Shown one piece after another: positions 1,099-55,620 of a DNA stretch of 59,247 nt; within the stretch, counting starts at the first letter, position 1, and the number at the start of each line of letters is the position of its first letter. This DNA comes from an uncultured Candidatus Saccharibacteria bacterium. GTDB lineage: Bacteria; Patescibacteriota; Minisyncoccia; JACQLN01. The position numbers and the translations under genes are program-made. Where the stretch lies: positions 1-59,247 of the forward strand of contig CAYIPG010000002.1 of the NCBI GenBank assembly GCA_964365305.1, in the 5' to 3' direction. The notes beneath the pieces are model-generated. The model had not been told where the DNA came from and did no database searches. It worked only from the letters and a program-made list of their open reading frames with translations.

Positions 1099-1297
1099 TT
1101 TGATTTAACATATTTCCATTCCATTTTCCAATTACAATTTACAATGTCATTTTTAGGCGATAGCATAAATGTGACATTGTGGTTTTGAATAATTTAAATA
1201 GAGTGAATAGAGATAGAGATGGTCTAACCTCTCTAATCTGACCTTAAATACACTGAGATAACGATGGATTTCTTGAATGGCAGAAAAAAAGAATGAC

Positions 1298-3928: not shown

Positions 3929-4521
3929 ACAGTCGCTTGATTTTAAATTTATCTATTTTTTTACTGCTGGTTTTTGTGATTCTGGTTGGAGTCAAGCCGG
4001 CTTTCTCGTCGGTCTCAAATTTAAGGGGTGAGGCGGCTTTAAGAAAAGACGAAGTCGAAAAAGAGAGGCAGGTTCTGGAAAAAATAAAATCATTAAGCGG
4101 CGCGGTGGATTCCCGCCAAAGCGAAGTTAAGCGGCTGGAAGCGGCCATTCCCAATTCGGAATCAAAGCCGGAGCTGATTTCTATAATGGAAAATTTGGCT
4201 AGCCAGAATGGTTTGGGTTTGATTGCCATAAGCGCCGAGTTGCTGCCCGATGATCCCAAATCGCGTAAAGAAAGGGTAGAAAATATACTGCAAGGCGCGG
4301 TGCTTAAAACACTAAAGTTGGATCTCAAACTCACTGGAAGTTATGAGGCCTTTAAAAGTTGGCTGGACGCCGTGGAAAATAATTTAAGGATTTTTGATAT
4401 TCAGAATATTTCTTTTTCGGTTAAAGAAAATAGCGGTTCTCAAAATCAGACTGAGGTCTTAAAAATAAATCCGGTTATGGAATACGCTGTGGTAGTGAAC
4501 ACTTATCTGATCAAAAAATAA
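3925..4521 (+). CDS. PilO-like pilus assembly protein
   Basis: N-terminal TM plus coiled coil. 4-nt overlap with the pilN-like gene. The call rests mainly on position. Confidence 0.55.
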   Translation: MNSRLILNLSIFLLLVFVILVGVKPAFSSVSNLRGEAALRKDEVEKERQVLEKIKSLSGAVDSRQSEVKRLEAAIPNSESKPELISIMENLASQNGLGLIAISAELLPDDPKSRKERVENILQGAVLKTLKLDLKLTGSYEAFKSWLDAVENNLRIFDIQNISFSVKENSGSQNQTEVLKINPVMEYAVVVNTYLIKK

Positions 4522-4533
4522 AACATAATTAGA

Positions 4534-4836
4534 ATGGCTGTTGTAATAACACAGGAAATAAAGAAAAAAAGAACGATGCTGGCCTTGGCTGGAATTTTAC
4601 TGGTGGTTACGGCGGTTATTCTTTATGTTGGCCTTAAAAAAACACCGCCGATCGAGGAAACCGTGTCTGCGCCGGCTGGGGTAGCCGGGGCGCCGGAAGA
4701 AATTGCTCCAGCGCCGGAAGTGGGTGATCTTAATATAGGTATTTTGGAAGACACGCGCTTTAAAAAACTTCAGGAGTCGCCGGGCTTGCCGGTGGCGACC
4801 AGCACTACAGGGAAATCAAATCCGTTCTCGGAATAA
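4534..4836 (+). CDS. small membrane protein of the pilus assembly row (function unknown)
   Basis: One TM segment, then a Pro/Ala-rich linker. Tightly packed between the pilO-like gene and pilB. Confidence 0.55.
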   Translation: MAVVITQEIKKKRTMLALAGILLVVTAVILYVGLKKTPPIEETVSAPAGVAGAPEEIAPAPEVGDLNIGILEDTRFKKLQESPGLPVATSTTGKSNPFSE

Positions 4837-4936: not shown

Positions 4937-6661
4937 ATGGATCTGCTAACCTATCTAATCCAAAACGGTCTTATAAAAGAAAATCAAATCCGGGATATTC
5001 CACCGGAAATTTTAAGCAACCCCAATGATTTAGAGAATGAACTTGTCAAACGCAACTTGATAAGCCCAGACGATATTCTACAAGCCAAAAGCGTTTTTTC
5101 TGGAGTGCCTTATTTGGATTTAACTTCAAAGGCAATAGAAAATAGCGTGCTTCAGGAAATACCCGAGAAGGCCGCTTTGCATTATCGCTTTATACCTATA
5201 GAAAAAAATGGCAATGAATTGACGGTGGGCATGGTTAACCCGGAGGATGTGGAAGCGCGCGAGGCCTTAAAATTTATCTCCTTAAAGGGCAATTTCACTT
5301 CCAAAATTTATCTTATATCCGAAGCCGACTTTAAAAATGTGTCGGCCCAATATCGCACCTTAGGCAAAGAAGTTACTACGGCTTTGGAACAACTGGAAGA
5401 AGAATTGGCCGGCGAAGATAAATCGGGGATCTCGGTCGGAGCGGAAAAAGTGGAGCAGATTGCCGTTGAGGCGCCTATCACCAAAGTCGTTTCAGTTATT
5501 TTAAGGCACGCAGTGGAAGGGCGGGCCTCGGATATTCATATTGAGCCCTTAGAAAACGAGACCCGTGTGAGATTTCGTTTGGACGGGGTGTTGTATTCTT
5601 CCATTATTCTGCCTAGTTCCATTCATAATTCTATAATTGCCCGGATAAAGGTTTTAGCTAGTTTAAAAATAGATGAGACCAGAATGCCTCAGGATGGCCG
5701 GTTTCACACCAAAATAAACAACAAAAAAATTGATTTTCGGGTGTCGTCTTTGCCTACGGCTTACGGCGAGAAAATAGTCATGCGGGTTTTAGACCCGACG
5801 GTGGGCGTGGGCACTTTTGGCGATCTTGGTTTTATCGGTCGAAATCTGGAGGTGTATGAACGGAGCATCAAACAACCCTACGGCATTGTTTTGATAACCG
5901 GTCCCACGGGTTCGGGCAAGTCCACCACTTTATACACCACGCTTAACTCGCTTAACAAAGACGGCGTTAATATCATCACTTTGGAGGATCCGGTGGAATA
6001 TTACATCGCCGGGGTTAATCAATCACAGATAAAACCGGAAATTGGCTATACTTTCGCTTCGGGTTTAAGAAGTATTTTAAGGCAAGATCCCAACATTATT
6101 ATGGTGGGTGAAATCAGAGATAAAGAAACGGCCGGTTTAGCCATGCACGCCGCTTTAACCGGACATTTGGTTTTATCCACCTTGCACACCAACAACGCCT
6201 TGGGAATAATTCCGCGATTGGCGGATATGGGTGTGGATGCTTTTTTAATTCCTTCAACCCTGATAGCCGGTCTGGCCCAACGATTGATTAAAAAACTTTG
6301 CCAAAACTGCAAAACCCCCACCGAAACAGCCCCCGCTCTGGCTAAGATTATAGAAGAGTCGCTGGCTAGCGTTCCCCCCGCCGAATTGGAAAAATACAAA
6401 ATCAAAAAGCCCTTCCAACTTTTTAAATCCCCGGGCTGTGATCAATGCGGCCACAAAGGCACCAAAGGTCGGCTGGCTATTTATGAGATATTTGAAATGA
6501 CTCCTGATTTGGAAAAAATAATTTTGGAATCAATGTCCGAAGTTAAAATTGCGGCCGAGGTTAAAAAACAGGGGATGATAACTATGAAACAGGATGGTAT
6601 AATGAAAGCGTTGCTCGGCTTGTTGCCCATAGAGGAGGTCTTGAGGGTGGTGGAGGAGTAG
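4937..6661 (+). CDS. pilB: type IV pilus assembly ATPase PilB (GspE family)
   Basis: Walker A GPTGSGKST, GspE boxes, C-terminal CQNC...CDQC tetracysteine. ATG 4937 lies directly after the cassette. Confidence 0.92.
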   Translation: MDLLTYLIQNGLIKENQIRDIPPEILSNPNDLENELVKRNLISPDDILQAKSVFSGVPYLDLTSKAIENSVLQEIPEKAALHYRFIPIEKNGNELTVGMVNPEDVEAREALKFISLKGNFTSKIYLISEADFKNVSAQYRTLGKEVTTALEQLEEELAGEDKSGISVGAEKVEQIAVEAPITKVVSVILRHAVEGRASDIHIEPLENETRVRFRLDGVLYSSIILPSSIHNSIIARIKVLASLKIDETRMPQDGRFHTKINNKKIDFRVSSLPTAYGEKIVMRVLDPTVGVGTFGDLGFIGRNLEVYERSIKQPYGIVLITGPTGSGKSTTLYTTLNSLNKDGVNIITLEDPVEYYIAGVNQSQIKPEIGYTFASGLRSILRQDPNIIMVGEIRDKETAGLAMHAALTGHLVLSTLHTNNALGIIPRLADMGVDAFLIPSTLIAGLAQRLIKKLCQNCKTPTETAPALAKIIEESLASVPPAELEKYKIKKPFQLFKSPGCDQCGHKGTKGRLAIYEIFEMTPDLEKIILESMSEVKIAAEVKKQGMITMKQDGIMKALLGLLPIEEVLRVVEE

Positions 6662-16159: not shown

Positions 16160-16188
16160 AATTATCAAACACCGAGTGTTTGATAATT
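16160..16188. repeat. 29-bp perfect palindrome AATTATCAAACAC-CGA-GTGTTTGATAATT
   Basis: Lies exactly between the ligA stop and the stop of the Y1 gene. Confidence 0.9.
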
Positions 16189-16864
16189 AAAGTTCATCAT
16201 CTATATCTATTCTGTATTTTTCTTCTAAACTTTCCTTAGCGCTACTTTTTTTGATAAAATCGTGATACTTGTAATTTTCGCTAAATTGACCAGTTATAAT
16301 ACCAGGAACCAGTAGTTGTCCCCACCTATTTGTCTCTAAATAATCTTGATAACTTGACCACTCATAATTATGTTCTCTGTTTTTCCAATGTTTTAATCCC
16401 CTTGGGTTTTTGTGTATATAAGCAGAAAGATGAAGAAGTTGGAGGTTGTCATTAATATGTACAGCTTTAAAAGGACCTTGAAATAGATGGCCTATTTTGC
16501 GGTATTTGGTATTAAAGTATTTTGTATATGCATTCTGCACTCGTTGCATATAGTCGGATATACCGTTGTCTTTTATCTCTTTCACAATGATATGAAAATG
16601 GTTTGGCATTAGTGTAAAACCAATTAGATTAACCATCTTGTCTTTCATAAATTTATCGATCCCCTTAATTTTATTAAACACTCGGTGTTTAATAAAATGG
16701 GTTACATTGTAGCCAATATTGTTAAAAGATTGTTCGGATTGCAGATGTAAAATAAGAAAAAGGAATCTAACATAATCTCTTTCGTTTGTGAAAATATTTT
16801 GTTTATTATTACCTCTGTTGAATATATGGAAATGTTCTCCGGGAGCAAATTTAGTTTTCCTCAT
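16187..16864 (-). CDS. IS200/RAYT-like HUH-Y1 transposase-family protein
   Basis: HUH motif LMPNHFHIIV and C-terminal YIHKNP tyrosine motif. Flanked by matching palindromes. Confidence 0.8.
   Translation of the reverse strand: MRKTKFAPGEHFHIFNRGNNKQNIFTNERDYVRFLFLILHLQSEQSFNNIGYNVTHFIKHRVFNKIKGIDKFMKDKMVNLIGFTLMPNHFHIIVKEIKDNGISDYMQRVQNAYTKYFNTKYRKIGHLFQGPFKAVHINDNLQLLHLSAYIHKNPRGLKHWKNREHNYEWSSYQDYLETNRWGQLLVPGIITGQFSENYKYHDFIKKSSAKESLEEKYRIDIDDEL
16669..16697. repeat. 29-bp perfect palindrome TTTTATTAAACAC-TCG-GTGTTTAATAAAA inside the Y1 CDS
   Basis: Encodes FIKHRVFNK. Same AAACAC/GTGTTT core as the flanking palindrome. Confidence 0.9.
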
Positions 16865-28261: not shown

Positions 28262-28372
28262 ATGGAAAATAAGAACACAAAGGTTTTTGTGGCGATGTCG
28301 GGCGGCGTGGATTCAAGCGTCGCGGTCCCGCCAGTAGAGCAAAGCTCACTACGGGACTGCCTTGAGTTTTAA
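28262..28372 (+). pseudogene. relic duplicate of the mnmA 5' end (PP-loop region) followed by a GC-rich hairpin
   Basis: Translates MENKNTKVFVAMSGGVDSSVA..., then 15 unrelated codons and a stop. Parallels MNEQTKNKKVFVAISGGVDSSVA of the real gene 115 nt downstream. Confidence 0.7.
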
Positions 28373-28376
28373 TAAT

Positions 28377-29504
28377 ATGAACGAGCAAACAAAAAATAAG
28401 AAAGTATTTGTAGCTATATCAGGCGGAGTTGATAGTAGCGTTGCTTTGTTGTTGCTTAAAAATCAAGGTTACGATGTTACGGGCGTGTTTATGAAAAACT
28501 GGGCTGATCCGGCTTGGCCTTGCCCGTGGGCCGAAGATCGCGCCGACGCTTTGCGTGTCTGCGTCAAGTTGGGCATTCCTTTTGAGACCTTTGATTTTAC
28601 AAAGGAATACAAAGCCACGGTGGTTGATTATATGATTCGCGAATATACTTCGGGCCGAACACCTAACCCCGATGTGATGTGCAACAAAGAAATAAAGTTT
28701 GGCTTGTTTTTTGATAGAGCGATGCAGATGGGCGCGGATTATATCGCCACAGGGCATTATGTTAGGTTAGCGACAAGTGACAAGGGACAAGGGACAAGTA
28801 AGAATCAAAACATGTCGCTTCTACGGGCTCGCGATCTAAATAAAGATCAAAGTTATTTTTTATGGACTTTAACCCAAGCCAGGCTTAGGCAATGTTTGTT
28901 TCCGATCGGTGAAATTGAATCCAAAACCGAAGTTCGCCGGCTAGCGGCCGAATATAATCTGCCCGTGGCCGATAAGAAGGACTCGCAGGGTATTTGTTTT
29001 ATGGGGCCGGTGGATGTGGCCGAGTTTATCAAACCATATGTCAAAACCGCTATCGGAGATATTGTAACCACCTCCGGCCAAAAAATCGGCACGCACGCCG
29101 GTTTGGATTTTTTCACTATCGGTCAGCGCAAAGGCATCGGCATCGGCGGCACCGGGCCGTATTATGTGACTCAAAAAAATTACGAAACCAATACTTTGGT
29201 AGTTGCGCCAGCTGCTGATCAAACTTCTTTAGAGTCCAGCTCGCTTATTGCAAGCGATATAAGTTTCGTAAACGATCTCACGAGCATGCGATCGCATGCT
29301 CGTGAGATCGGAGAAGAATCAATCAAGATACAAGCATCAATTCGATATCGGCAAGAACCTGTTCCAGCGACTTTATCTAAGGTCGGAGATGATAAGTGGC
29401 GAGTAGATTTTGAAACTCCCGTCCGCGCTATCACCCCCGGCCAGTCGGTGGTTTTTTATCAGAGCGAAGAAATGCTCGGGGGAGGTGTTATTGACATAGT
29501 ATAG
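28377..29504 (+). CDS. mnmA: tRNA 2-thiouridine(34) synthase
   Basis: PP-loop SGGVDSS, KDQSYFLW, and C-terminal domain. ATG 28377 preferred over TTG 28362. Confidence 0.92.
   Translation: MNEQTKNKKVFVAISGGVDSSVALLLLKNQGYDVTGVFMKNWADPAWPCPWAEDRADALRVCVKLGIPFETFDFTKEYKATVVDYMIREYTSGRTPNPDVMCNKEIKFGLFFDRAMQMGADYIATGHYVRLATSDKGQGTSKNQNMSLLRARDLNKDQSYFLWTLTQARLRQCLFPIGEIESKTEVRRLAAEYNLPVADKKDSQGICFMGPVDVAEFIKPYVKTAIGDIVTTSGQKIGTHAGLDFFTIGQRKGIGIGGTGPYYVTQKNYETNTLVVAPAADQTSLESSSLIASDISFVNDLTSMRSHAREIGEESIKIQASIRYRQEPVPATLSKVGDDKWRVDFETPVRAITPGQSVVFYQSEEMLGGGVIDIV
28772..28799 (+). repeat. four tandem heptamers GACAAG(T/G) inside mnmA
   Basis: GACAAGT GACAAGG GACAAGG GACAAGT. Bracketed by AGCGACA / TGTCGCT. 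Confidence 0.85.
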
Positions 29505-29573: not shown

Positions 29574-29909
29574 ATGACCAGAAAACCCCGAGAAGCTACA
29601 TCAAAGCAAAAAGAAGTTCTTGTCCGTATGGGGATCTTGTCTCGAGAAAAGGCCGAAGATCTTTTCTTCACGGAGGCAAGTTACCTTCTTCGGATTAATC
29701 TGGCCGCCAGTGGATTGGAGAAAGTACGCAATGCTGCTAAATCCCTAAATGTGGGTGATGATGTCGAATATCATGGGACTATTTGCAGGGTTGTCACTAT
29801 CCACGAGCTTCGTCCGAAGGGTGTGTTCTGTAACATGAACAATGTCACCATCCAACCGCCGGAGGGTAGGAAGAAGACAGTTCAGGCAAACAGCCTTAAG
29901 AAGGTTTAA
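29574..29909 (+). CDS. hypothetical protein (GC-richer ORFan upstream of wHTH-Cas2-like gene A)
   Basis: SD AAAGGA 6-7 nt upstream and its own intrinsic terminator. Codon usage visibly differs from neighbours. Confidence 0.65.
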   Translation: MTRKPREATSKQKEVLVRMGILSREKAEDLFFTEASYLLRINLAASGLEKVRNAAKSLNVGDDVEYHGTICRVVTIHELRPKGVFCNMNNVTIQPPEGRKKTVQANSLKKV

Positions 29910-29946
29910 TTTTGAAAGACCACCAGATCTTTAGGGTTCAACAAAA

Positions 29947-29980
29947 GGGAGATTGCGGAAAAACGCATCTCCCTTTTTTA
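29947..29980 (+). terminator. intrinsic terminator of ORFan 29574-29909
   Basis: GGGAGATTGCG-GAAAAA-CGCATCTCCC followed by TTTTTT. Confidence 0.8.
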
Positions 29981-30048
29981 TTTTCTCGCTTTAATCCAAT
30001 TTTAACCCAAGCCCTGTCACATGCTATACTTTTAAAATATTATACTTT

Positions 30049-30076
30049 GCATGAGATAACGATCGTTATCTCATGC
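30049..30076. repeat. 28-bp perfect palindrome GCATGAGATAACGATCGTTATCTCATGC upstream of wHTH-Cas2-like gene A
   Basis: Follows a TATACT -10-like box. The 26-bp core is identical to 30695-30720. Confidence 0.92.
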
Positions 30077-30129
30077 AATATTTAGTCCAATATCAAATTA
30101 TATATCAAGCTATATATCAACAAACTATT

Positions 30130-30699
30130 ATGAAATCCGGTGGGAAATTACAAAGATTGGGTCCAAATCAGCAAAAGGTTTTATTGCTTTTATTTGGCGG
30201 GGTGGGATTAATGTTATCCCAATCCATTAAGACACAATTTAGAGTTATTAAAGAGGTCTCTAAAGAATGGAAAAATATAAATAATTTGAGTTTGAGAAGA
30301 GCGATTACTACTTTATATAAATCCAAACTTATTTTAGAAAAAGAAAATCCAGACGGGACGACCACTATGTTTTTAACTGAAAAGGGTAAAGAGAAGGCCA
30401 TCACTTTTAATATAGAAACAATAAAAATTATGTCGCCAAAGAGATGGGATAAAAAATGGCGGTTAGTTGTCTTTGATATACCGGAAAAGAAAAGAAAGGC
30501 TCGCGATGCTTTGAGAGAGGTATTAAAGAAGATGGAGTTTTATGAATATCAAAAAAGCATTTTTATTCACCCTTACCATTGTAGAGATGAGTTAGATTAT
30601 ATCATTGAATTTTTTAGGATGAGACCTTATGTTAGGTTAATTGTGTCGGAGGAATTAGATAATGAATTACATCTTAGAAAGATTTTCAACCTATCATGA
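30130..30699 (+). CDS. winged-helix (PaaX-N-like) plus Cas2/VapD-like domain protein
   Basis: WDKKWRLVVFDIPEKKRKARDALREVLKKMEFYEYQKSIFIHPY matches the Cas2-like beta1-alpha1 pattern with conserved Asp. The track N-terminus from 30073 is low-complexity repeat DNA. Confidence 0.75.
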   Translation: MKSGGKLQRLGPNQQKVLLLLFGGVGLMLSQSIKTQFRVIKEVSKEWKNINNLSLRRAITTLYKSKLILEKENPDGTTTMFLTEKGKEKAITFNIETIKIMSPKRWDKKWRLVVFDIPEKKRKARDALREVLKKMEFYEYQKSIFIHPYHCRDELDYIIEFFRMRPYVRLIVSEELDNELHLRKIFNLS

Positions 30700-30724
30700 G
30701 ATAACGATCGTTATCTCATGATAG
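30691..30724. repeat. 34-bp perfect palindrome CTATCATGAGATAACGATCGTTATCTCATGATAG overlapping the stop codon of gene A
   Basis: Stop TGA 30697-30699 lies in the left arm. 26-bp core identical to the upstream copy. Confidence 0.92.
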
Positions 30725-43749: not shown

Positions 43750-44754
43750 ATGGCTCTCAAAATAGGTATAGATTTAGGCACGGCCAATGTTTTGGTTTTT
43801 GTGCCGGGTAAAGGAATAATTGCCAACGAACCCTCGGTGGTGGCGGTTACTTTAGACGACAATCGGATTATAGCGGTGGGTGCCGCCGCCAAAGAAATGA
43901 TCGGCCGCACGCCCGAGATTATTGCCGCGGTGCGGCCGATTCGCGACGGCGTTATTGCCGATTACCGCGTTACCGAAGCGTTGATCCGTCATTTTATTAA
44001 AAAAGTAACGGGGCGGTTTAATTTTTTCCGGCCCGAAGTGATGGTGGCGGTGCCGGCCGGCATAACTTCGGCCGAAAAACGCGCCGTTATAGAAGCCACA
44101 CTTAAGGCCGGAGCCAAAGCGGCTTATGTGGTGAAAGAACCAATATTGGCCGCCATCGGCGCCGGCATTCCCATCAACGAGGCCTCGGGCAATATGATTA
44201 TAGACATCGGCGGCGGCACCACCGAGGTGGCAGTGATTGCTTTGGGCGGGATTGTCTGTTGGGCTTCGGCGCGGGTGGGCGGCAACGCCATTGACGCCGC
44301 TATTCAAAATTATATTCATAAGGTTCATAATTTATCGGTGGGCGAACGCACCGCCGAGCAAATAAAAATAACTTTGGGTTCGGCTTTGCCCCAAAAAGAA
44401 GAAGAAATTTTGGAGATCCGCGGGCGCGATTTGGTGGCGGGTTTGCCTAAAACCATAGAACTCCATTCCAACGAAATTCCCAAAGCCATTAAAGACACCT
44501 TGGGCGAAATAATTAAAGCCGTTAAAAAGGTTTTGCAGGAAACCCCGCCGGAACTGGCGGCGGATGTGATGGACAAAGGCATGATTCTTTCGGGCGGTAT
44601 GGCGCTGTTAAAAAATCTGGACAGTTTGATTACCCAAGAAACCGGCGTACCCTGCTATGTGGCCGATGAACCGCTTTTTTGCGTGGCCAAAGGCACTGGC
44701 GTGGCGCTGGAAAATTTGGAACTTTATAAAAGGGCGCTGTTTGCCAAAAGATAA
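43750..44754 (+). CDS. mreB: MreB/Mbl-family actin homolog (stand-alone paralog)
   Basis: IGIDLGTANVLVF..., DIGGGTTEVAVI. Confidence 0.9.
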   Translation: MALKIGIDLGTANVLVFVPGKGIIANEPSVVAVTLDDNRIIAVGAAAKEMIGRTPEIIAAVRPIRDGVIADYRVTEALIRHFIKKVTGRFNFFRPEVMVAVPAGITSAEKRAVIEATLKAGAKAAYVVKEPILAAIGAGIPINEASGNMIIDIGGGTTEVAVIALGGIVCWASARVGGNAIDAAIQNYIHKVHNLSVGERTAEQIKITLGSALPQKEEEILEIRGRDLVAGLPKTIELHSNEIPKAIKDTLGEIIKAVKKVLQETPPELAADVMDKGMILSGGMALLKNLDSLITQETGVPCYVADEPLFCVAKGTGVALENLELYKRALFAKR

Positions 44755-44785: not shown

Positions 44786-44817
44786 GCGACTAACCTTGCT
44801 TGAGCAAGGTTAGTCGC
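44786..44817. repeat. 32-bp perfect palindrome GCGACTAACCTTGC-TTGA-GCAAGGTTAGTCGC
   Basis: Downstream of the stand-alone mreB paralog. No U-tract follows. Confidence 0.85.
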
Positions 44818-44902
44818 GAATATCCTCCCTCTTGATAATAAATTATTGAACCTCCTTGAAGTCGTTCAAACCAATGTTTCTACTAGCCACCATCGGTCTT
44901 GT

Positions 44903-45691
44903 ATGATCTATACCAGGCAACTAAATTATTTGGATTTAATTTTACGCAACAACAAACTTCCCCACGCGTTGTTGTTTTATGGCGCCGACACTGATGGGAT
45001 AAAGCAAATTGCCCAGGCGTTGATTTTTAGAATAAACACTCCGGCTTCTAGCTGGGCTGATTTTAATACAGATAATCAGTTAAGCCACACCATCAAAAAT
45101 GAATCCAACCCCGATGTCTTTTTGGTCAAATTAACAGCAGGCAAAAAAGAAATTGGCATTGCCCAAATTCGCGCGCTTAAAAGTTTTTTGTCCCAATCGC
45201 CTTTGGTTCTGGCCAAGAAAGCGGCCATTATTGAAAACGCCCACCGTTTAACCGAAGAGGCCTGGAACGCTTTGCTTAAAACGCTGGAAGAACCGTCGCC
45301 CAACAGTATAATTTTTGTGATCAGTTCTGGGATCGGATCTATCCCCAAAACCATTATTTCTAGAGCCCTGGTTGTGCCTTTTAATTTAACAGCAATTAGC
45401 GCCAAAATTGTTGAAAGTGATATAATTAAAAAATTGGCGGGCAGTGACGATATTTCTATTTACGAAAAATTTGATCTGGCCGAAAAGATTGCGGCGTCAG
45501 ACCGCCTGGCTGAATTTTTAGACGAGTGGATGCTGGTGTTGTATTCGCAGCTTAAATCAAATAGTCATTCTCAAGAAAATATTCTAACCCAAATCAAATT
45601 GATTCTTAAAACAAAAGGCCTTGTTTCTAAAACTAATGCCAATCCCAGAATAATGCTGGAGCGGCTCATTTTAGAAACCCATATTAAATAA
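44903..45691 (+). CDS. holB: DNA polymerase III delta' subunit
   Basis: LPHALLFYG, LLKTLEEPSPNSIIFVIS. ATG 44903 preferred over TTG 44846. Confidence 0.8.
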   Translation: MIYTRQLNYLDLILRNNKLPHALLFYGADTDGIKQIAQALIFRINTPASSWADFNTDNQLSHTIKNESNPDVFLVKLTAGKKEIGIAQIRALKSFLSQSPLVLAKKAAIIENAHRLTEEAWNALLKTLEEPSPNSIIFVISSGIGSIPKTIISRALVVPFNLTAISAKIVESDIIKKLAGSDDISIYEKFDLAEKIAASDRLAEFLDEWMLVLYSQLKSNSHSQENILTQIKLILKTKGLVSKTNANPRIMLERLILETHIK

Positions 45692-48441: not shown

Positions 48442-48542
48442 CTGTTTTGTTTGAATGAATATAGTCAAAAAAGATAAAAAAAGGTTACAATTCTATGCGA
48501 ACGCCTTTTATTGTAACCTTTAATTTAAGACCACTCGAGATT

Positions 48543-49088
48543 CTATGCGAGTTCAAATTTAAGTTTTAACTCGGCTTCATTTGTGATTTTTGTGGCAGTT
48601 ACTAAACGCACATAAGGCCGCAATTGAAAAAATTCAGTAACAAAATTTATTTCATTTTCACATTCGTAGGGCAACACAAAAACACTTTTTTGATACAACA
48701 TAAATCCAAGCTCTTTTAGTTTTGATCTCAATAATTCACGCCTTTGTTTCTTTTTGTCGGGGATGTCGAATATCACCAAGCGCCACTTTTTATCCCATTG
48801 CTTCGGCAACTTTATTTTAATCTCATCGATATTATATTTGAGTACTTTCTTGGTGCCATCTTCTGTCAGCACAATTTTTATAGTTCCATCTCTATTTTCC
48901 TTAAAATCAACTAGGCGTTCATATTTAAATTCTTTTATCAACCGAATAAGATATTTTCGATCAAGATCTTTGAAAGCATTGTGAGTGGTCTTGATTATTT
49001 TGTAATATTTTTGGGGCGATCTAGTTAAACTCAAAGCTAAACCAGCACTTAGCAACAATAAGATTTTCTTTTTGGTGGATGTTCGCAT
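48543..49088 (-). CDS. winged-helix (PaaX-N-like) plus Cas2/VapD-like domain protein, paralog B
   Basis: WDKKWRLVIFDIPDKKKQRRELLRSKLKELGFMLYQKSVFVLPY. Clear paralog of 30130-30699. Confidence 0.78.
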   Translation of the reverse strand: MRTSTKKKILLLLSAGLALSLTRSPQKYYKIIKTTHNAFKDLDRKYLIRLIKEFKYERLVDFKENRDGTIKIVLTEDGTKKVLKYNIDEIKIKLPKQWDKKWRLVIFDIPDKKKQRRELLRSKLKELGFMLYQKSVFVLPYECENEINFVTEFFQLRPYVRLVTATKITNEAELKLKFELA

Positions 49089-49270
49089 TTAACTTTCTTC
49101 TCTTTGCTTGTGTTCGTAATAATAAAAGGTGTTAAAACTATGCGATCGCTTAAAATAAACACCATTTTATTTTACCATATTACCATAGTTACCATGTTGT
49201 TGTACATTGTTAAATGTAGAGATGATATATATTGCAGAGATGATGTGTATTTACCGCAATATAACCAATA

Positions 49271-49307
49271 ATTAAAAATACTCCGAGGGATTTTTTCCTC
49301 GGAGTAT
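49271..49307 (-). terminator. intrinsic terminator of the Cys-rich ORFan
   Basis: Plus strand reads ATACTCCGAGG-GATTTTTT-CCTCGGAGTAT. A U-run follows on the minus strand. Confidence 0.8.
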
Positions 49308-49341
49308 TTGATAAGGGTTTGGTAGGTCAATGCTGTTTCAG

Positions 49342-49722
49342 CTACTTCAATTGACAATGGGGAAATAGCTCCGTTGGTTCTCGTTTTGACACCATACTGC
49401 TTTTGCGGAAAACCAGGGTCCAACGCAGGTTTCCGAACCGCTCGCATTTGGGCCCGTTTGCTCCCACAGCAAGAAAAATGCAGCAGTTGTCTTCTTGCCC
49501 CGCGCCGCATTTCTTGAGGTCAGCCACGGCATTTTCCGGACCGATAACCTCGAGTCGGCCAAAGAGCGTGCCACAAGAAGCTGACACCCCTTCGTAAACA
49601 ACTGGAACCTCGTCATCCGTGCAGCAGGAAAGCATTCCACCAAGATCGGGGCACACTACTCCCATGCTGCCACTTTTCTTGTTTTTGACCACCGTTTGAA
49701 TAGGGATCTTATCGCAAGCCAT
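49342..49722 (-). CDS. cysteine-rich hypothetical protein (GC-richer ORFan upstream of wHTH-Cas2-like gene B)
   Basis: SD AAAGGAG upstream of ATG 49722. 9 Cys, including two CC pairs. Intrinsic terminator at 49271-49307. Confidence 0.7.
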   Translation of the reverse strand: MACDKIPIQTVVKNKKSGSMGVVCPDLGGMLSCCTDDEVPVVYEGVSASCGTLFGRLEVIGPENAVADLKKCGAGQEDNCCIFLAVGANGPKCERFGNLRWTLVFRKSSMVSKREPTELFPHCQLK

Positions 49723-49806
49723 TTTTTACTCCTTTCTTTATTGGGTTTTTGATTGGGAAGGAACGATTTCAAACTAGCATTATTAATCAAATGGTGTCAA
49801 GTTTTG

Positions 49807-52305: not shown

Positions 52306-53100
52306 ATGGTGAGATGGCAACAGGCGCTGGCGATTTTTATTTTAACGCTGGTCTTGTTCTTTTCCGACAAGGCCGGTTTTTTTGATTTCGGCGTTAATAT
52401 AATCAATAAATTCACAGTGTCTCCCATCACTAAATTTACCGCCGGCGCGTTGGAAGAATCTTTTTTTATTTTTAAAAACTTCTTGGGCATCCGCCAGATA
52501 ATCAGAGAAAATCTTTTTTTAAGGAGTCAACGCGATTTTTTTAGGGGGGAGTATTTTAAATTGTTGGGAATAGAACAAGAAAATGATTTTTTGCGTCAGG
52601 CCTTAAATTCAGAAAAAGAAAGCAGCTCTAAAATTATTCTGGCGCGTATTGTGTCGTTTGATCCGTTTTATGCCAGCGAGGTGTTTTTAATAGACAAGGG
52701 TTCGGCCGATGGTGTCAACGCCAATGACGCGGTTATTCTGCCTGGCGGGATAGTTGTGGGGCATATTAAGGGTATAAGTTCAAAAGAAAGCCGTGTTTTA
52801 TTGATAACTTCGGCTCAAAGCCGGGTGACAGTGTCTTCGAAAAATAGCCAAATCAGCGGGGTTGTTTCTGGATCGGCCAGCGGCGCTTTAAATTTGGATC
52901 TTGTCTTAAAAAACACCCAATTAAGCCCAGGGGAGATTTTAATTACTTCCGGGTTAGATGGAATTTTTCCGGCGGATTTATTGGTGGGCGAAATAACAAA
53001 AATTACCGATAACAGCGCCGCGTCTTTCCGCCAGGCCTCGGTCCGGCCATTTTTCACACTCCGAGATCTCAAGCAAGTTTTTGTGGTTGTCTCAAAATAA
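52306..53100 (+). CDS. mreC: rod shape-determining protein MreC
   Basis: TM, coiled coil, then GLDGIFPADLLVGEI. Directly after mreB. Confidence 0.85.
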   Translation: MVRWQQALAIFILTLVLFFSDKAGFFDFGVNIINKFTVSPITKFTAGALEESFFIFKNFLGIRQIIRENLFLRSQRDFFRGEYFKLLGIEQENDFLRQALNSEKESSSKIILARIVSFDPFYASEVFLIDKGSADGVNANDAVILPGGIVVGHIKGISSKESRVLLITSAQSRVTVSSKNSQISGVVSGSASGALNLDLVLKNTQLSPGEILITSGLDGIFPADLLVGEITKITDNSAASFRQASVRPFFTLRDLKQVFVVVSK

Positions 53101-53102
53101 TC

Positions 53103-53125
53103 ATATCGGTTTGCGAAACCGATAT
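53103..53125. repeat. 23-bp palindrome ATATCGGTTT-GCG-AAACCGATAT
   Basis: 13 nt upstream of ATG 53138. Confidence 0.9.
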
Positions 53126-53137
53126 ATAATACGAATT

Positions 53138-53857
53138 ATGTATAGTAAAAAGTCATACCCAGGTAATTTGTATCATGTCCTTAATCGTGGTGTTGATAAG
53201 AGGATTATCTTTATCGATAAAGTTGATTATTTAAGATTTATTCGTATTTTGTACGATTTTAATAATATTGAACCGGTGAGTAATTTTAGTTATTTTTTTG
53301 CTAAACAAAAACAAGAAAATTCTATTGGTTTCGCAAACAGATATGGAGTTGGATATAATCAGGGTTCTAGAAAGGTGCTGGTTGATGTTTTGGCTTTTGT
53401 TCTTATGCCCAATCATTATCATTTATTATTAAAACCGCGAATTGAAAATGGTGTAACTCTTTTTATGAAGAAAATTAATATTGGCTATGCGAATTATTTT
53501 AATAAAAAATATGAACGGAGTGGTGCTTTATTCCAAGGGCGTTACAAATCTGTGATTGTGACTAAGGAAGCTCATTTTATACATTTACCTTATTATATTC
53601 ATGCTAATCCTTTGGACTTGGTTATTCCTGAATGGAGAGATGGAAAAGTAAGAAACCCAAAAAAAGCAATGAACTTTTTGAAAAGTTATCGTTGGAGTAG
53701 TTTTAGTGATTATATCGGTCGTGTGAATTTTCCACTAACAACTCAAAGGGATTTTCTTTTGGAATTTGTAGGTGGAACTACAAGGTACAAAATAAATTTT
53801 TCAGAGTGGCTTCGAGCGATGGATATGGATAAACTAAACAGCTTTACTTTGGAATAA
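53138..53857 (+). CDS. IS200/RAYT-like HUH-Y1 transposase-family protein, paralog 2
   Basis: LMPNHYHLLLKP (HUH) and YYIHANP (Tyr motif). ATG 53138; the track start 53081 reads through the flanking palindrome. Confidence 0.8.
   Translation: MYSKKSYPGNLYHVLNRGVDKRIIFIDKVDYLRFIRILYDFNNIEPVSNFSYFFAKQKQENSIGFANRYGVGYNQGSRKVLVDVLAFVLMPNHYHLLLKPRIENGVTLFMKKINIGYANYFNKKYERSGALFQGRYKSVIVTKEAHFIHLPYYIHANPLDLVIPEWRDGKVRNPKKAMNFLKSYRWSSFSDYIGRVNFPLTTQRDFLLEFVGGTTRYKINFSEWLRAMDMDKLNSFTLE
53323..53343. repeat. degenerate intragenic copy TATTGGTTT-CGC-AAACAGATA
   Basis: Encodes SIGFANRY. Differs at 2 positions from the 3' flank copy. Confidence 0.8.
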
Positions 53858-54969: not shown

Positions 54970-55593
54970 ATGGACGAACAAAATAATTCAGACGGTCAAA
55001 ATAGTCAGGAATTTGATAAAAAAGAACGCCGCGAGTTGAGGCGTCAGGAAGAAGAACAACAGCAGGCGTCTAGACAGATACACAAAAAGACAAAAAAGAT
55101 ATTTGTTTGGATTGGAGTTGTTGCTGTTTTGGCGTGGGGCGGTTGGGGTGTTTACAAATGGGTCAAGACATCTGAAGCCGATAAACCCGGCGAGGCCATT
55201 TCTATTCAACCGGCCGAGCATATTCAGCCCGGCGAACCTTTGCCTGGTTTATATCTTTCCAATCCGCCGGTCTCGGGTTGGCACTATGGTCAAACGGCGG
55301 AATGGGGTATTTATGATAAAGAATTGATTGATCAGAATGTTATTCATAATCTAGAGCATGGCGGCATTTGGATTTCTTACAAGCCCGACGCGCCGACGGA
55401 ACTTATCGCCAAATTAAAAGAGGTGGCGGGCAGATACAGTCGGAAAGTGATATTGGCTCCGCGCGCGGCCAACGATTCCATAATCGCTGTGGCCGCTTGG
55501 GGGCGGTTGGATAAATTTGGTTATTTTGACGAAGCCCGCATTGTAAAATTCATCAAGGCCTTCAAAGACAAAGGCCCCGAATTTGTTCCATAA
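54970..55593 (+). CDS. DUF3105-like membrane-anchored protein
   Basis: TM, then HNLEHGGIWISYKPD motif. Confidence 0.7.
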   Translation: MDEQNNSDGQNSQEFDKKERRELRRQEEEQQQASRQIHKKTKKIFVWIGVVAVLAWGGWGVYKWVKTSEADKPGEAISIQPAEHIQPGEPLPGLYLSNPPVSGWHYGQTAEWGIYDKELIDQNVIHNLEHGGIWISYKPDAPTELIAKLKEVAGRYSRKVILAPRAANDSIIAVAAWGRLDKFGYFDEARIVKFIKAFKDKGPEFVP

Positions 55594-55620
55594 ATGTTAA
55601 ACATCGGATGTTTAACATTT
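55592..55620. repeat. 29-bp perfect palindrome AAATGTTAAACAT-CGG-ATGTTTAACATTT
   Basis: 13+3+13. Overlaps the stop codon 55591-55593. Confidence 0.88.

Follow-up and report, generated by a model that had tools for sequence, protein, structure and literature searches.

PaaX/PhaN, the phenylacetyl-CoA-responsive repressor of the paa genes in E. coli and Pseudomonas, comprises an N-terminal winged-helix-type domain, a central Cas2-like domain termed PaaX_M, and a C-terminal effector domain, in a protein of ~300 aa. Its operator in E. coli spans 39 bp (TGATTC-N27-GAATCA), and the protein represses its own promoter, Px, by keeping RNA polymerase away (PMC9493321). In a stretch of DNA from an uncultured Candidatus Saccharibacteria bacterium (contig CAYIPG010000002.1, 59,247 bp, 42.9% GC, 64 open reading frames, ORFs; hereafter "the window") we found two paralogous genes, termed here A and B, which encode the N-terminal and PaaX_M portions of such a protein and are bracketed by long palindromes. 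The reading that we favor, and that we consider probable without being confident of it, is that each encodes a "mini-PaaX" that represses itself, and that the gene, enclosed by two cognate operators, behaves as an accessory, relocating cassette, rather than as one half of a two-gene module, as proposed in a preliminary description of this DNA. The computed support comes from the domain content, the bracketing sites, their co-variation with the protein, the promoter register, and the polymorphism of the unit; DNA binding, repression and dimerization are predictions from sequence.

The family resembles PaaX in the order of its domains and in the length of the palindrome that would serve as its operator (39 bp in E. 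coli, 30-50 bp here), and would also resemble it in autorepression. It differs in the lack of the effector domain (181-189 aa as compared to ~300 aa), in the absence of paa genes from the vicinity of its members (in the window and in 80 other loci, where the neighbors are housekeeping genes), and in possessing an RCGATCGY core, a second cognate site after the gene, multiple paralogs with private sites, and a history of gain and loss. In the Cas1-Cas2 complexes of CRISPR systems, Cas2 forms a dimer positioned along duplex DNA, as also indicated by PDB titles. The family shares with it the ferredoxin-like fold, the Asp residue of the beta1 'hhhhYD' motif and the 'Q.S.F' motif, but here the fold is fused to a putative DNA-binding domain and occurs among housekeeping genes, without cas1 or a CRISPR array. 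RAYT-REP systems are similar in that a single gene lies between matching palindromes and a few solitary palindromes of the same type are found elsewhere, but the mini-PaaX protein is not a member of the HUH/Y1 group, and there are two palindrome copies per gene in 59 kb instead of a highly iterated set. Autoregulated antitoxins and controller (C) proteins are also small dimeric DNA-binding proteins with an operator over their own promoter, as predicted for the family studied here, which however has no partner toxin or enzyme gene, a putative operator 2-3 times longer, and a second copy of it downstream. The unit could be best described as a PaaX-type autoregulator reduced to a minimum and carried between two sites in a relocating cassette; it is PaaX-like, but devoid of the effector domain and of the paa context.

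Domain content and distribution of the family

The two genes of the window are as follows:

30130-30699, plus strand: gene A, 189 aa, a paralog of gene B at 43% identity
48543-49088, minus strand: gene B, 181 aa, a mini-PaaX with an N-terminal helix-turn-helix (HTH)-like domain and a Cas2-like PaaX_M domain

Both products match the Pfam family PF20803 (PaaX_M, "PaaX protein central Cas2-like domain") with E-values of 1.5e-22 for B and 1.2e-22 for A, over residues 96-171 and 104-177, respectively, at 80 bits; neither matches Y1_Tnp in Pfam. The NCBIfam PaaX equivalog TIGR02277 is matched with scores of only 27.7 and 30.6 (cutoff 264.55), over profile positions 32-152 of 279, and the proteins stop, at 181 and 189 aa, where the C-terminal effector domain of PaaX would start. 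The NCBIfam Cas2 model TIGR01573 is matched with scores of 28.8 and 26.4 (cutoff 24.5), but over ~40 of its 96 positions, and PADLOC reported only partial Cas2 matches. AF2 models (mean predicted confidence, pLDDT, of 80 for B, and 90.9 for A with a 70-sequence alignment) exhibit three helices and a beta-hairpin and, after these, a domain of beta-alpha-beta-beta-alpha-beta topology. Foldseek matched this second domain to Cas2 chains (E ~0.01) and the whole chain to E. coli PaaX (8a39) across 143-150 columns; the relationship needed a fold search, as sequence searches of the PDB gave only marginal matches (Cas2, VapD, YodB). The hallmark residues of Cas2, i.e. the Asp that ends beta1 (WRLVxFDIPE; D108 in B and D116 in A) and the Q.S.F motif, are invariant in 70 family members.

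Database searches revealed 301 homologs for gene B and 472 for gene A at E<=1e-40, and every organism name given for them is that of a member of Patescibacteria (candidate phyla radiation, CPR) or an unclassified 'bacterium'. The window itself carries housekeeping genes typical of Patescibacteria (murB, ligA, mnmA, alaS, frr, rseP, proS, mreB). In several genomes at least three paralogs occur within a single metagenome-assembled genome. In one locus (L017), two PaaX-like paralogs (3959-4543 and 5179-5769), 630 bp apart on the same strand and each with its own CGATCG-centered sites, enclose an opposite-strand gene for a 102-aa protein with duplicated CxxC...CxxC zinc-ribbon-like motifs. The names given to family members in the source records vary from "CRISPR-associated endonuclease Cas2" to "PaaX family regulator" and "phaN"; Cas2-type names appear on records P0002, P0044, P0052, P0064, P0118, P0195, P0241, P0245 and P0291. 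As the NCBIfam Cas2 model barely clears its cutoff, on a 40-residue stretch, this name is best read as an over-annotation. The window has no CRISPR array; of its 64 ORFs none is cas1 or any other cas gene, the two mini-PaaX matches excepted, and clustering of the neighbors in 80 loci revealed no cas genes. No relatives were found in the IMG/VR viral contigs and no matches in PHROG, and a phage origin was rejected because both searches were empty. A search of the full-text literature found no account of this CPR family or of its palindromes, but its coverage is incomplete, so that this is weak evidence.

Palindromic sites bracketing the gene

To analyze the surroundings of the family members, 80 genome loci with a relative of the gene were fetched, which together with the window provided 83 genes from ~75 genomes. 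The sites in the window are as follows (folding energies refer to the RNA hairpins):

30047-30078, plus strand: upstream site of gene A, a perfect 32-bp palindrome TTGCATGAGATAACGATCGTTATCTCATGCAA, -20.3 kcal/mol
30691-30724, plus strand: downstream site of gene A, a perfect 34-bp palindrome, -22.0 kcal/mol, 60 bp before alaS
49124-49168, minus strand: upstream site of gene B, a degenerate 45-bp palindrome AAAATGGTGTT..GCGATCGC..AACACCTTTT with its core at 49142-49149
48480-48521, minus strand: downstream site of gene B, a hairpin AAAGGTTACAAT..ATTGTAACCTTT with a T-run after it, -15.4 kcal/mol, z -5.1
48541-48550, minus strand: TCGCATAGAA over the TAG stop codon of gene B, repeated at 48491-48500

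The CGATCG-centered palindromes that had been noticed at both ends of gene A are two copies of a perfect 26-bp palindrome, CATGAGATAACGATCGTTATCTCATG, which occurs exactly twice in the window (30050-30075 and 30695-30720, with a chance expectation of 0), the first copy 55 bp before the start of the gene and the second over its TGA stop codon. The motif described as duplicated over the stop codon of gene B and in the adjacent hairpin loop, TTCTATGCGA, is also found exactly twice in 59 kb (48541-48550 and 48491-48500; 0.06 expected, and 0 of 100 shuffles reached 2), and the 8-mer CTATGCGA four times, three of them around gene B. The CGATCG motif reported upstream of gene B is present, but is only the core (49142-49149) of the degenerate 45-bp palindrome, which has the consensus architecture of the family and an equivalent at the orthologous gene in locus L001. 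The downstream hairpin of gene B has kept its outer arms, and its center has decayed to TCGCATAGAA alone; at the L001 ortholog (76% identical to B) the downstream palindrome is perfect over 48 bp, has an GCTATAGC core, and shares the outer arms, AAAAGGTCACA, of the gene B hairpin. Judging from this comparison, the TCGCATAG motifs at gene B are inner-arm remnants of a decayed palindrome. A scan of the 59 kb indicated that the palindromes of each of the two genes are private to it. Iteration of GCGATCGC/CGATCG in the manner of HIP1 was rejected, with 14 CGATCG in the window against ~10 expected by a rough estimate from base composition, i.e. no clear excess. Rfam has no match in the window.

Flanking motifs of this type are recurrent family-wide, as the preliminary description had anticipated. 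Comparison of the 220 bp upstream of each gene with the region around and after its stop codon revealed an exact repeat of 12-42 bp in 50/83 genes, where only repeat lengths reached by at most 1% of ~200 control windows of the same locus were counted. These repeats are long palindromes of 30-50 bp, centered on RCGATCGY. Palindromes scoring at least 10 occur at 2.45/kb at the gene ends as compared to 0.06/kb elsewhere in the same loci (a 40-fold difference), and 60/64 of those near the gene have CGATCG, CTATAG, CGGTCG, CGACCG or CTATCG/CGATAG as their centers, whereas elsewhere the centers are random. In 358 kb of independent Patescibacteria DNA we found only two such palindromes, one of them adjoining a PaaX-like fragment, and three separately fetched loci of the A subfamily repeat the arrangement. 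The center-aligned logo exhibits the RCGATCGY core, AT-rich spacers, symmetric CA/TG at -13,-12/+11,+12 and AA/TT near +/-20, so that conservation recurs about once per helical turn (~10 bp); TGGTA is the conserved arm motif. The dyad lies at a median of 46 bp before the ATG in upstream copies and 45 bp after the stop codon in downstream copies, which are then followed by T-runs. RNA folding predicts very stable hairpins (-15 to -22 kcal/mol, z -3.7 to -7.3). Generic terminators were rejected as an explanation, because other palindromes of the same loci are random-centered and 40 times rarer, and because the two sites of a cognate pair match each other far better than those of non-cognate pairs.

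The upstream and downstream sites of one gene differ at 10.7 of 44 positions, compared to 24.3 for non-cognate pairs, and in 61/71 cognate pairs the difference is smaller than in 99% of the non-cognate ones. In a subfamily of 13 loci the inner 20 bp differ at 2.2 positions within a genome and at 4.6-5.0 between genomes. The right outer arm of the same sites is position-specific, i.e. upstream copies retain AATGCTATAAT with only 1.6 mismatches between genomes, while upstream and downstream copies within one genome differ by 5.0. As the outer arm is position-specific, the match of the inner arms is not due to blanket gene conversion, which we reject as the sole cause of the up/down identity in this subfamily; to judge from these alignments, the inner arms are matched by selection and not by wholesale gene conversion. 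The distance between arms tracks that between N-terminal domains (Mantel rho 0.20, p 0.002; partial correlation 0.17, compared to 0.06 for the Cas2-like C-terminal domain), and the N-terminal domain evolves faster (mean identity of 41%, as compared to 54% for the Cas2-like domain). For instance, gene B of the window and its L001 counterpart are alike both in the HTH region and in the arms, while the closer relative L088 differs in both.

The upstream sites are also in register with a promoter element. On the gene strand, an extended -10 sequence, TGnTAnnnT, begins at precisely 11 nt 3' of the dyad in 24/66 upstream sites, while the control counts are 8 for the opposite arm of the upstream sites and 5 and 6 for the arms of the downstream sites. 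A -10 element in that register places the dyad near -26 relative to the transcription start. In 11 loci the ATG lies 26-27 nt from the dyad, a distance that depends on the chosen start codon, which tentatively suggests leaderless mRNAs in these loci. A promoter of the TGnTAnnnT type is also found at proS of the window (TGCTAAAAT). Many window ORFs have TATAAT-like or TGnTAnnnT elements near the start codon, and 57/64 lack a Shine-Dalgarno (SD) sequence according to a crude test based on longest-ORF starts. From this pattern it would seem that the organism uses extended -10 promoters and that its leaders are short or missing.

Further cognate sites within +/-4 kb of the genes number only three, which is under the control rate, and a local regulon within that distance was rejected on this count. 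Two solitary sites of the family type are present in the window:

29273-29310, plus strand: a perfect 38-bp palindrome within mnmA (28362-29504), CGATCTCACGAGCATGCGATCGCATGCTCGTGAGATCG, with an GCGATCGC core
1141-1180, plus strand: a family-type site ACAATGTCA..GCGATAGC..TGACATTGT between convergent murB and a comF-like gene

The palindrome in mnmA falls where the protein has ~9 residues (LTSMRSHA) more than the solved MnmA structures, and possesses arms of the A-subfamily type (CACGAGCAT) that resemble the sites of loci L138 and L140. The site at 1141-1180 fits the consensus at C-13, A-12, T+11 and G+12; as no PaaX-like gene lies near it, its cognate protein, if any, would be encoded outside the window.

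The rseP-proS junction and the upstream ORFs

Gene B lies between rseP and proS, next to a small ORF that had been assigned to the same module. A scan with the ProS sequence of the window provided 52 metagenome loci, in which the junction varies as follows (identities refer to ProS of the window):

Window: ORFan B, gene B present
L088 (87%): ORFan B, gene B present
L001 (72%): a different small, SD-led ORF of 54 aa, Cys/Trp-containing, gene B present
L092 (71%): no ORF, gene B present
L086 and L087 (92%): an unrelated 126-aa membrane ORF with the same promoter/SD region and terminator, gene B and palindrome absent
L093 and L127 (72% and 78%): other ORFs, gene B absent
L096 (73%): no ORF, gene B absent
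More distant genomes (lower identity): rseP and proS adjacent, gene B absent

In the alignment of the window with L086, homology ends at 49752, resumes for the terminator (49310-49269, 95% identity), and is then interrupted by the replacement of the next ~830 bp by 45 bp, to come back at rseP. These comparisons indicate that the junction is the site of two independent variable units side by side, an ORF slot and a palindrome-gene-palindrome cassette. The small-ORF slot beside proS (49310-49752, minus strand) is hypervariable: a conserved promoter/SD region and the terminator AAATACTCCGAGG..CCTCGGAGTATTT enclose unrelated ORFs (the counterparts are 4361-4741 in L086 and 3519-3683 in L001), and the slot ORFs of the window and its relatives have no Pfam match. 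In L093 a solitary perfect 40-bp palindrome, AAAATAGCGCGAGCTTGCGATCGCAAGCTCGCGCTATTTT, is found at 501-540, in the place taken by the gene B cassette in relatives; the cassette could have left it as a footprint, or it could merely be a terminator with the same core.

The identity of the cassette does not follow that of the host genes. Gene B of L088 is only 65% identical to that of the window, although ProS, RseP and MreB are 87%, 87% and 97% identical, while that of L001 is 76% identical although the respective values are 72%, 64% and 84%; at this junction it is the protein, rather than the host, with which the arms of the sites agree. Elsewhere in the family, proteins that are 83-89% identical, with both sites kept, are found in wholly unrelated flanks, and in L014 the gene occupies another intergenic slot of the frr-rseP-proS cluster. 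GC content at third codon positions (GC3) is below that of the neighbors in 72/82 loci, by 8 points on average (p 2e-13). Among the traits of transposable elements, presence/absence and location at unrelated sites are exhibited by the unit, while near-identical copies within a genome are absent (the window paralogs are 43% identical). We found no target-site duplication and no clean empty site, the flanks in L086 being too diverged to define the junctions, and no solitary palindrome is present at the empty sites of L086 and L014 or at the empty frr-rseP junction of the window.

The ORFs upstream of the two genes, which are not part of the unit proposed here, and the repeats in the spacers are as follows:

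29574-29909, plus strand: ORFan A, 111 aa, SD-led, ~45-49% GC
29943-29977, plus strand: terminator of ORFan A, -20.7 kcal/mol, z ~-5.3
49342-49722, minus strand: ORFan B, Cys-rich, 126 aa, 55% GC, SD-led
49276-49309, minus strand: terminator of ORFan B and of the variable slot, -20.5 kcal/mol, z ~-5.3, kept where the ORF differs
49161-49195, minus strand: three ATGGTAA and further ATGGT repeats directly upstream of the gene B palindrome (array 49172-49195), containing TGGTA, which is likewise the arm motif of the family
30090-30120: ATATCAA array

The elements placed here by the preliminary description were all recovered at its coordinates: the four ORFs, the hairpin terminators behind both ORFans, and the repeats ATATCAA, ATGGTAA and ATCATCTCT (two copies) in the spacers. 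The lack of relationship between the two ORFans also held, as did their SD sequences, which set them apart from most genes of the window. Their description as GC-richer is appropriate for ORFan B but less so for ORFan A, and the stronger signal is that the Cas2-like genes are AT-rich (~32-33% GC, as compared to 43% in the window). Strictly, neither is an orphan, as ORFan B has 61 homologs, in Patescibacteria, and ORFan A has 5 homolog clusters, the only ones among 1.84 billion representatives.

The association of these ORFs with the Cas2-like genes was not confirmed. Across 82 loci, the upstream neighbor varies in family, in size (60-1239 aa) and in strand (same in 51, opposite in 31); among the flanking proteins 112/163 are singletons and the rest are housekeeping proteins, e.g. 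dnaE, aminoacyl-tRNA synthetases, tmk, dut, uvrB and dnaJ. Homologs of ORFan B in three other genomes have unrelated neighbors, with no PaaX_M gene adjoining. Neither PADLOC, which returned partial Cas2 matches only, nor the clustering of neighbors revealed a toxin-antitoxin or defense partner. We reject the two-gene module on the basis of the neighbors, the contexts of the ORFan B homologs and the rseP-proS junction, and a defense system on the basis of the PADLOC results; the resemblance to a toxin-antitoxin or defense layout fails in that there is no conserved partner in a fixed order and orientation. The suggestion of a small mobile module is in part retained, since it is compatible with the presence/absence, relocation and low GC3, but not in its two-gene composition.

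A putative autoregulatory cassette and its alternatives

In the mechanism that we propose, the unit consists of one gene and two DNA sites, in the order palindrome - mini-PaaX gene - palindrome. The mini-PaaX most likely dimerizes via its Cas2-like domain, as PaaX and Cas2 do, and the dimer would bind the 30-50 bp palindrome as double-stranded DNA, with the dyad on the RCGATCGY core, while its two N-terminal domains would read the variable arms about one helical turn out, with TGGTA/TACCA at about +/-12. Where the upstream palindrome overlaps or abuts the gene's own extended -10 promoter, binding would repress the gene, as E. coli PaaX does at Px. The downstream palindrome would be a second cognate operator, and is probably also a bidirectional terminator, because it forms a strong hairpin with A/T tracts. 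The two sites would insulate the gene, and the protein may bridge them. The unit as a whole is accessory: close relatives differ in whether they have it at the same junction of the chromosome, others carry it in unrelated contexts, and the upstream ORFans are unrelated occupants of the neighboring intergenic space.

Several observations weigh against this scheme. Asymmetric sites are mostly in direct orientation (42 direct and 11 inverted, or 12 and 3 when counted by protein cluster), a bias that is not predicted for a symmetric dimer on duplex DNA. The N-terminal domain has no match to any HTH family of Pfam above the threshold, and its winged-helix label is based on the homology to PaaX and on secondary structure only. 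The invariant Cas2 residues would not be required if the role of PaaX_M were dimerization alone. Two sites per gene (within +/-4 kb and in the 59-kb window) explain self-control, but provide neither a benefit to the cell nor a regulon. Finally, in both window copies the best -10-like elements are situated just upstream of the palindrome and outside its right arm (candidate extended -10 of gene A, TGCTATACT, 30022-30030, plus strand; of gene B, TGGTAATAT, 49177-49185, minus strand, within the ATGGTAA repeats, where it may serve as the promoter), so that these two sites would act as a roadblock or a 5'-untranslated region (5'-UTR) hairpin, close to the promoter or early in the transcript. A role beyond self-control, the invariant Cas2 residues, the direct bias and the solitary sites are left unexplained by an autorepressor, which keeps alive the idea that the cassette mobilizes itself.

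According to that idea, which we regard as unlikely, the Cas2-like/HTH protein would recognize the terminal palindromes and cut or recombine at the CGATCG core, and the solitary palindromes would be footprints or miniature derivatives, in a layout that might be likened to RAYT-REP or to site-flanked modules such as pdif modules. Such activity would account for the matching and mostly direct flanking repeats, for the presence and absence at one junction among relatives with ProS identities of 71-92% (with ~830 bp reduced to 45 bp in L086), for the incongruence between the cassette and the host genes in L088 and L001, for the proteins of 83-89% identity in unrelated flanks and the different slot in L014, for the low GC3, for the solitary sites, one of them at the in-frame insertion in mnmA, and for the invariance of the catalytic-type Asp of Cas2. 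It is at odds with the finding that no genome has identical or nearly identical copies (the two genes of the window share 43% identity and have private palindromes), with the lack of a target-site duplication, of a clean empty site and of solitary palindromes at the empty sites, and with the lack of relatives in the IMG/VR viral contigs; moreover, the upstream site is already explained by the promoter register and the PaaX precedent, and we know of no Cas2-fold protein that acts as a transposase or recombinase. The stronger version, in which a fusion of the Cas2 fold with a DNA-binding domain is an autonomous selfish element that nicks or recombines palindromes at CGATCG, moves between intergenic sites and leaves solitary palindromes behind, including the in-frame one in mnmA, is in our estimation slightly more doubtful still.

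The remaining explanations are even less attractive. A device acting at the RNA level, with the palindromes as a 5'-UTR attenuator and 3' terminator hairpins and a Cas2/VapD-like domain that binds or cleaves its own mRNA, appears improbable. It would fit the stable hairpins, the downstream copies located at a median of 45 nt after the stop codon and followed by T-runs, the candidate promoters upstream of the palindromes of genes A and B, the direct bias (as expected of strand-specific reading), and the RNase activity of certain Cas2 and VapD proteins (indicated by the PDB titles of 3exc and 3ui3); the excess of G.U-compatible mismatches over A.C ones (26 vs 12) lends it weak support. On the other hand, 60/98 arm mismatches are not wobble-compatible, the symmetric conservation with a ~10-bp period is what would be seen if duplex DNA were read from one face, the -10 element lies inside the 3' arm in at least 24 upstream sites, so that the full hairpin would not be transcribed, and there is no match to an Rfam family. 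A two-gene cassette of the toxin-antitoxin or defense kind, in which the upstream ORF is the variable cargo of a conserved regulator or nuclease, is very unlikely: the two loci of the window do share order and orientation, L088 repeats ORFan B together with gene B and L001 has another small SD-led ORF in the slot, but L092 has gene B without an ORF, L086 and L087 have another ORF without gene B, and each ORFan is terminated ahead of the Cas2-like gene, in addition to the variable neighbors, the partnerless ORFan B homologs and the partial PADLOC matches described above. A genuine Cas2 of CRISPR adaptation, which could be invoked because of the above-cutoff TIGR01573 scores, the PADLOC matches and the fold match, is almost certainly not the answer, given that only ~40/96 profile positions are covered, that the proteins are twice the size of Cas2 and have an extra N-terminal domain, that PaaX_M scores far higher (80 bits), and that the window has neither an array nor cas1 while the neighbors in the 80 loci are housekeeping genes.

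A self-repressing mini-PaaX with two operators would be of interest in several respects. Patescibacteria have very few recognizable regulators and are mostly uncultured, while this family has hundreds of members, and one small genome often encodes several paralogs. For each member the two cognate sites can be read off the sequence, which makes the family a testable set for protein-operator specificity. It also provides a handle on the structure of CPR promoters, with their extended -10 elements and possible leaderless starts, and corrects the widespread naming as "CRISPR-associated endonuclease Cas2" in genomes without CRISPR. It is unusual for a regulator gene to be bracketed by two co-evolving operators and to be gained, lost and relocated in the manner of a cassette. 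Catalysis by the Cas2-like domain on the palindromes, if it occurs, would make the unit a mobile element of a new type and an informative relative of Cas2. If it were a selfish element, it would represent a free-living Cas2 relative acting on palindromic repeats, with a bearing on the origin of palindrome handling in the CRISPR adaptation module.

The window contains two IS200-like genes with a Y1_Tnp (HUH) domain, at 16187-16864 (minus strand) and 53081-53857 (plus strand), located in low-GC patches (Pfam E-values of 7e-10 and 7e-9). The hairpins near them, AATTATCAAACACCGAGTGTTTGATAATT at 16160-16188 and 16668-16698 and AAATGTTAAACATCGGATGTTTAACATTT at 55592-55620, differ from the sites of the mini-PaaX family; together these genes and hairpins possibly form a RAYT/REP-like system that is separate from the mini-PaaX unit. 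Another perfect palindrome of 32 bp (44786-44817, GCGACTAACCTTGCTTGAGCAAGGTTAGTCGC), with the non-family center CTTGAG, is situated between the ORFs 43750-44754 and 44846-45691 and is probably a terminator.

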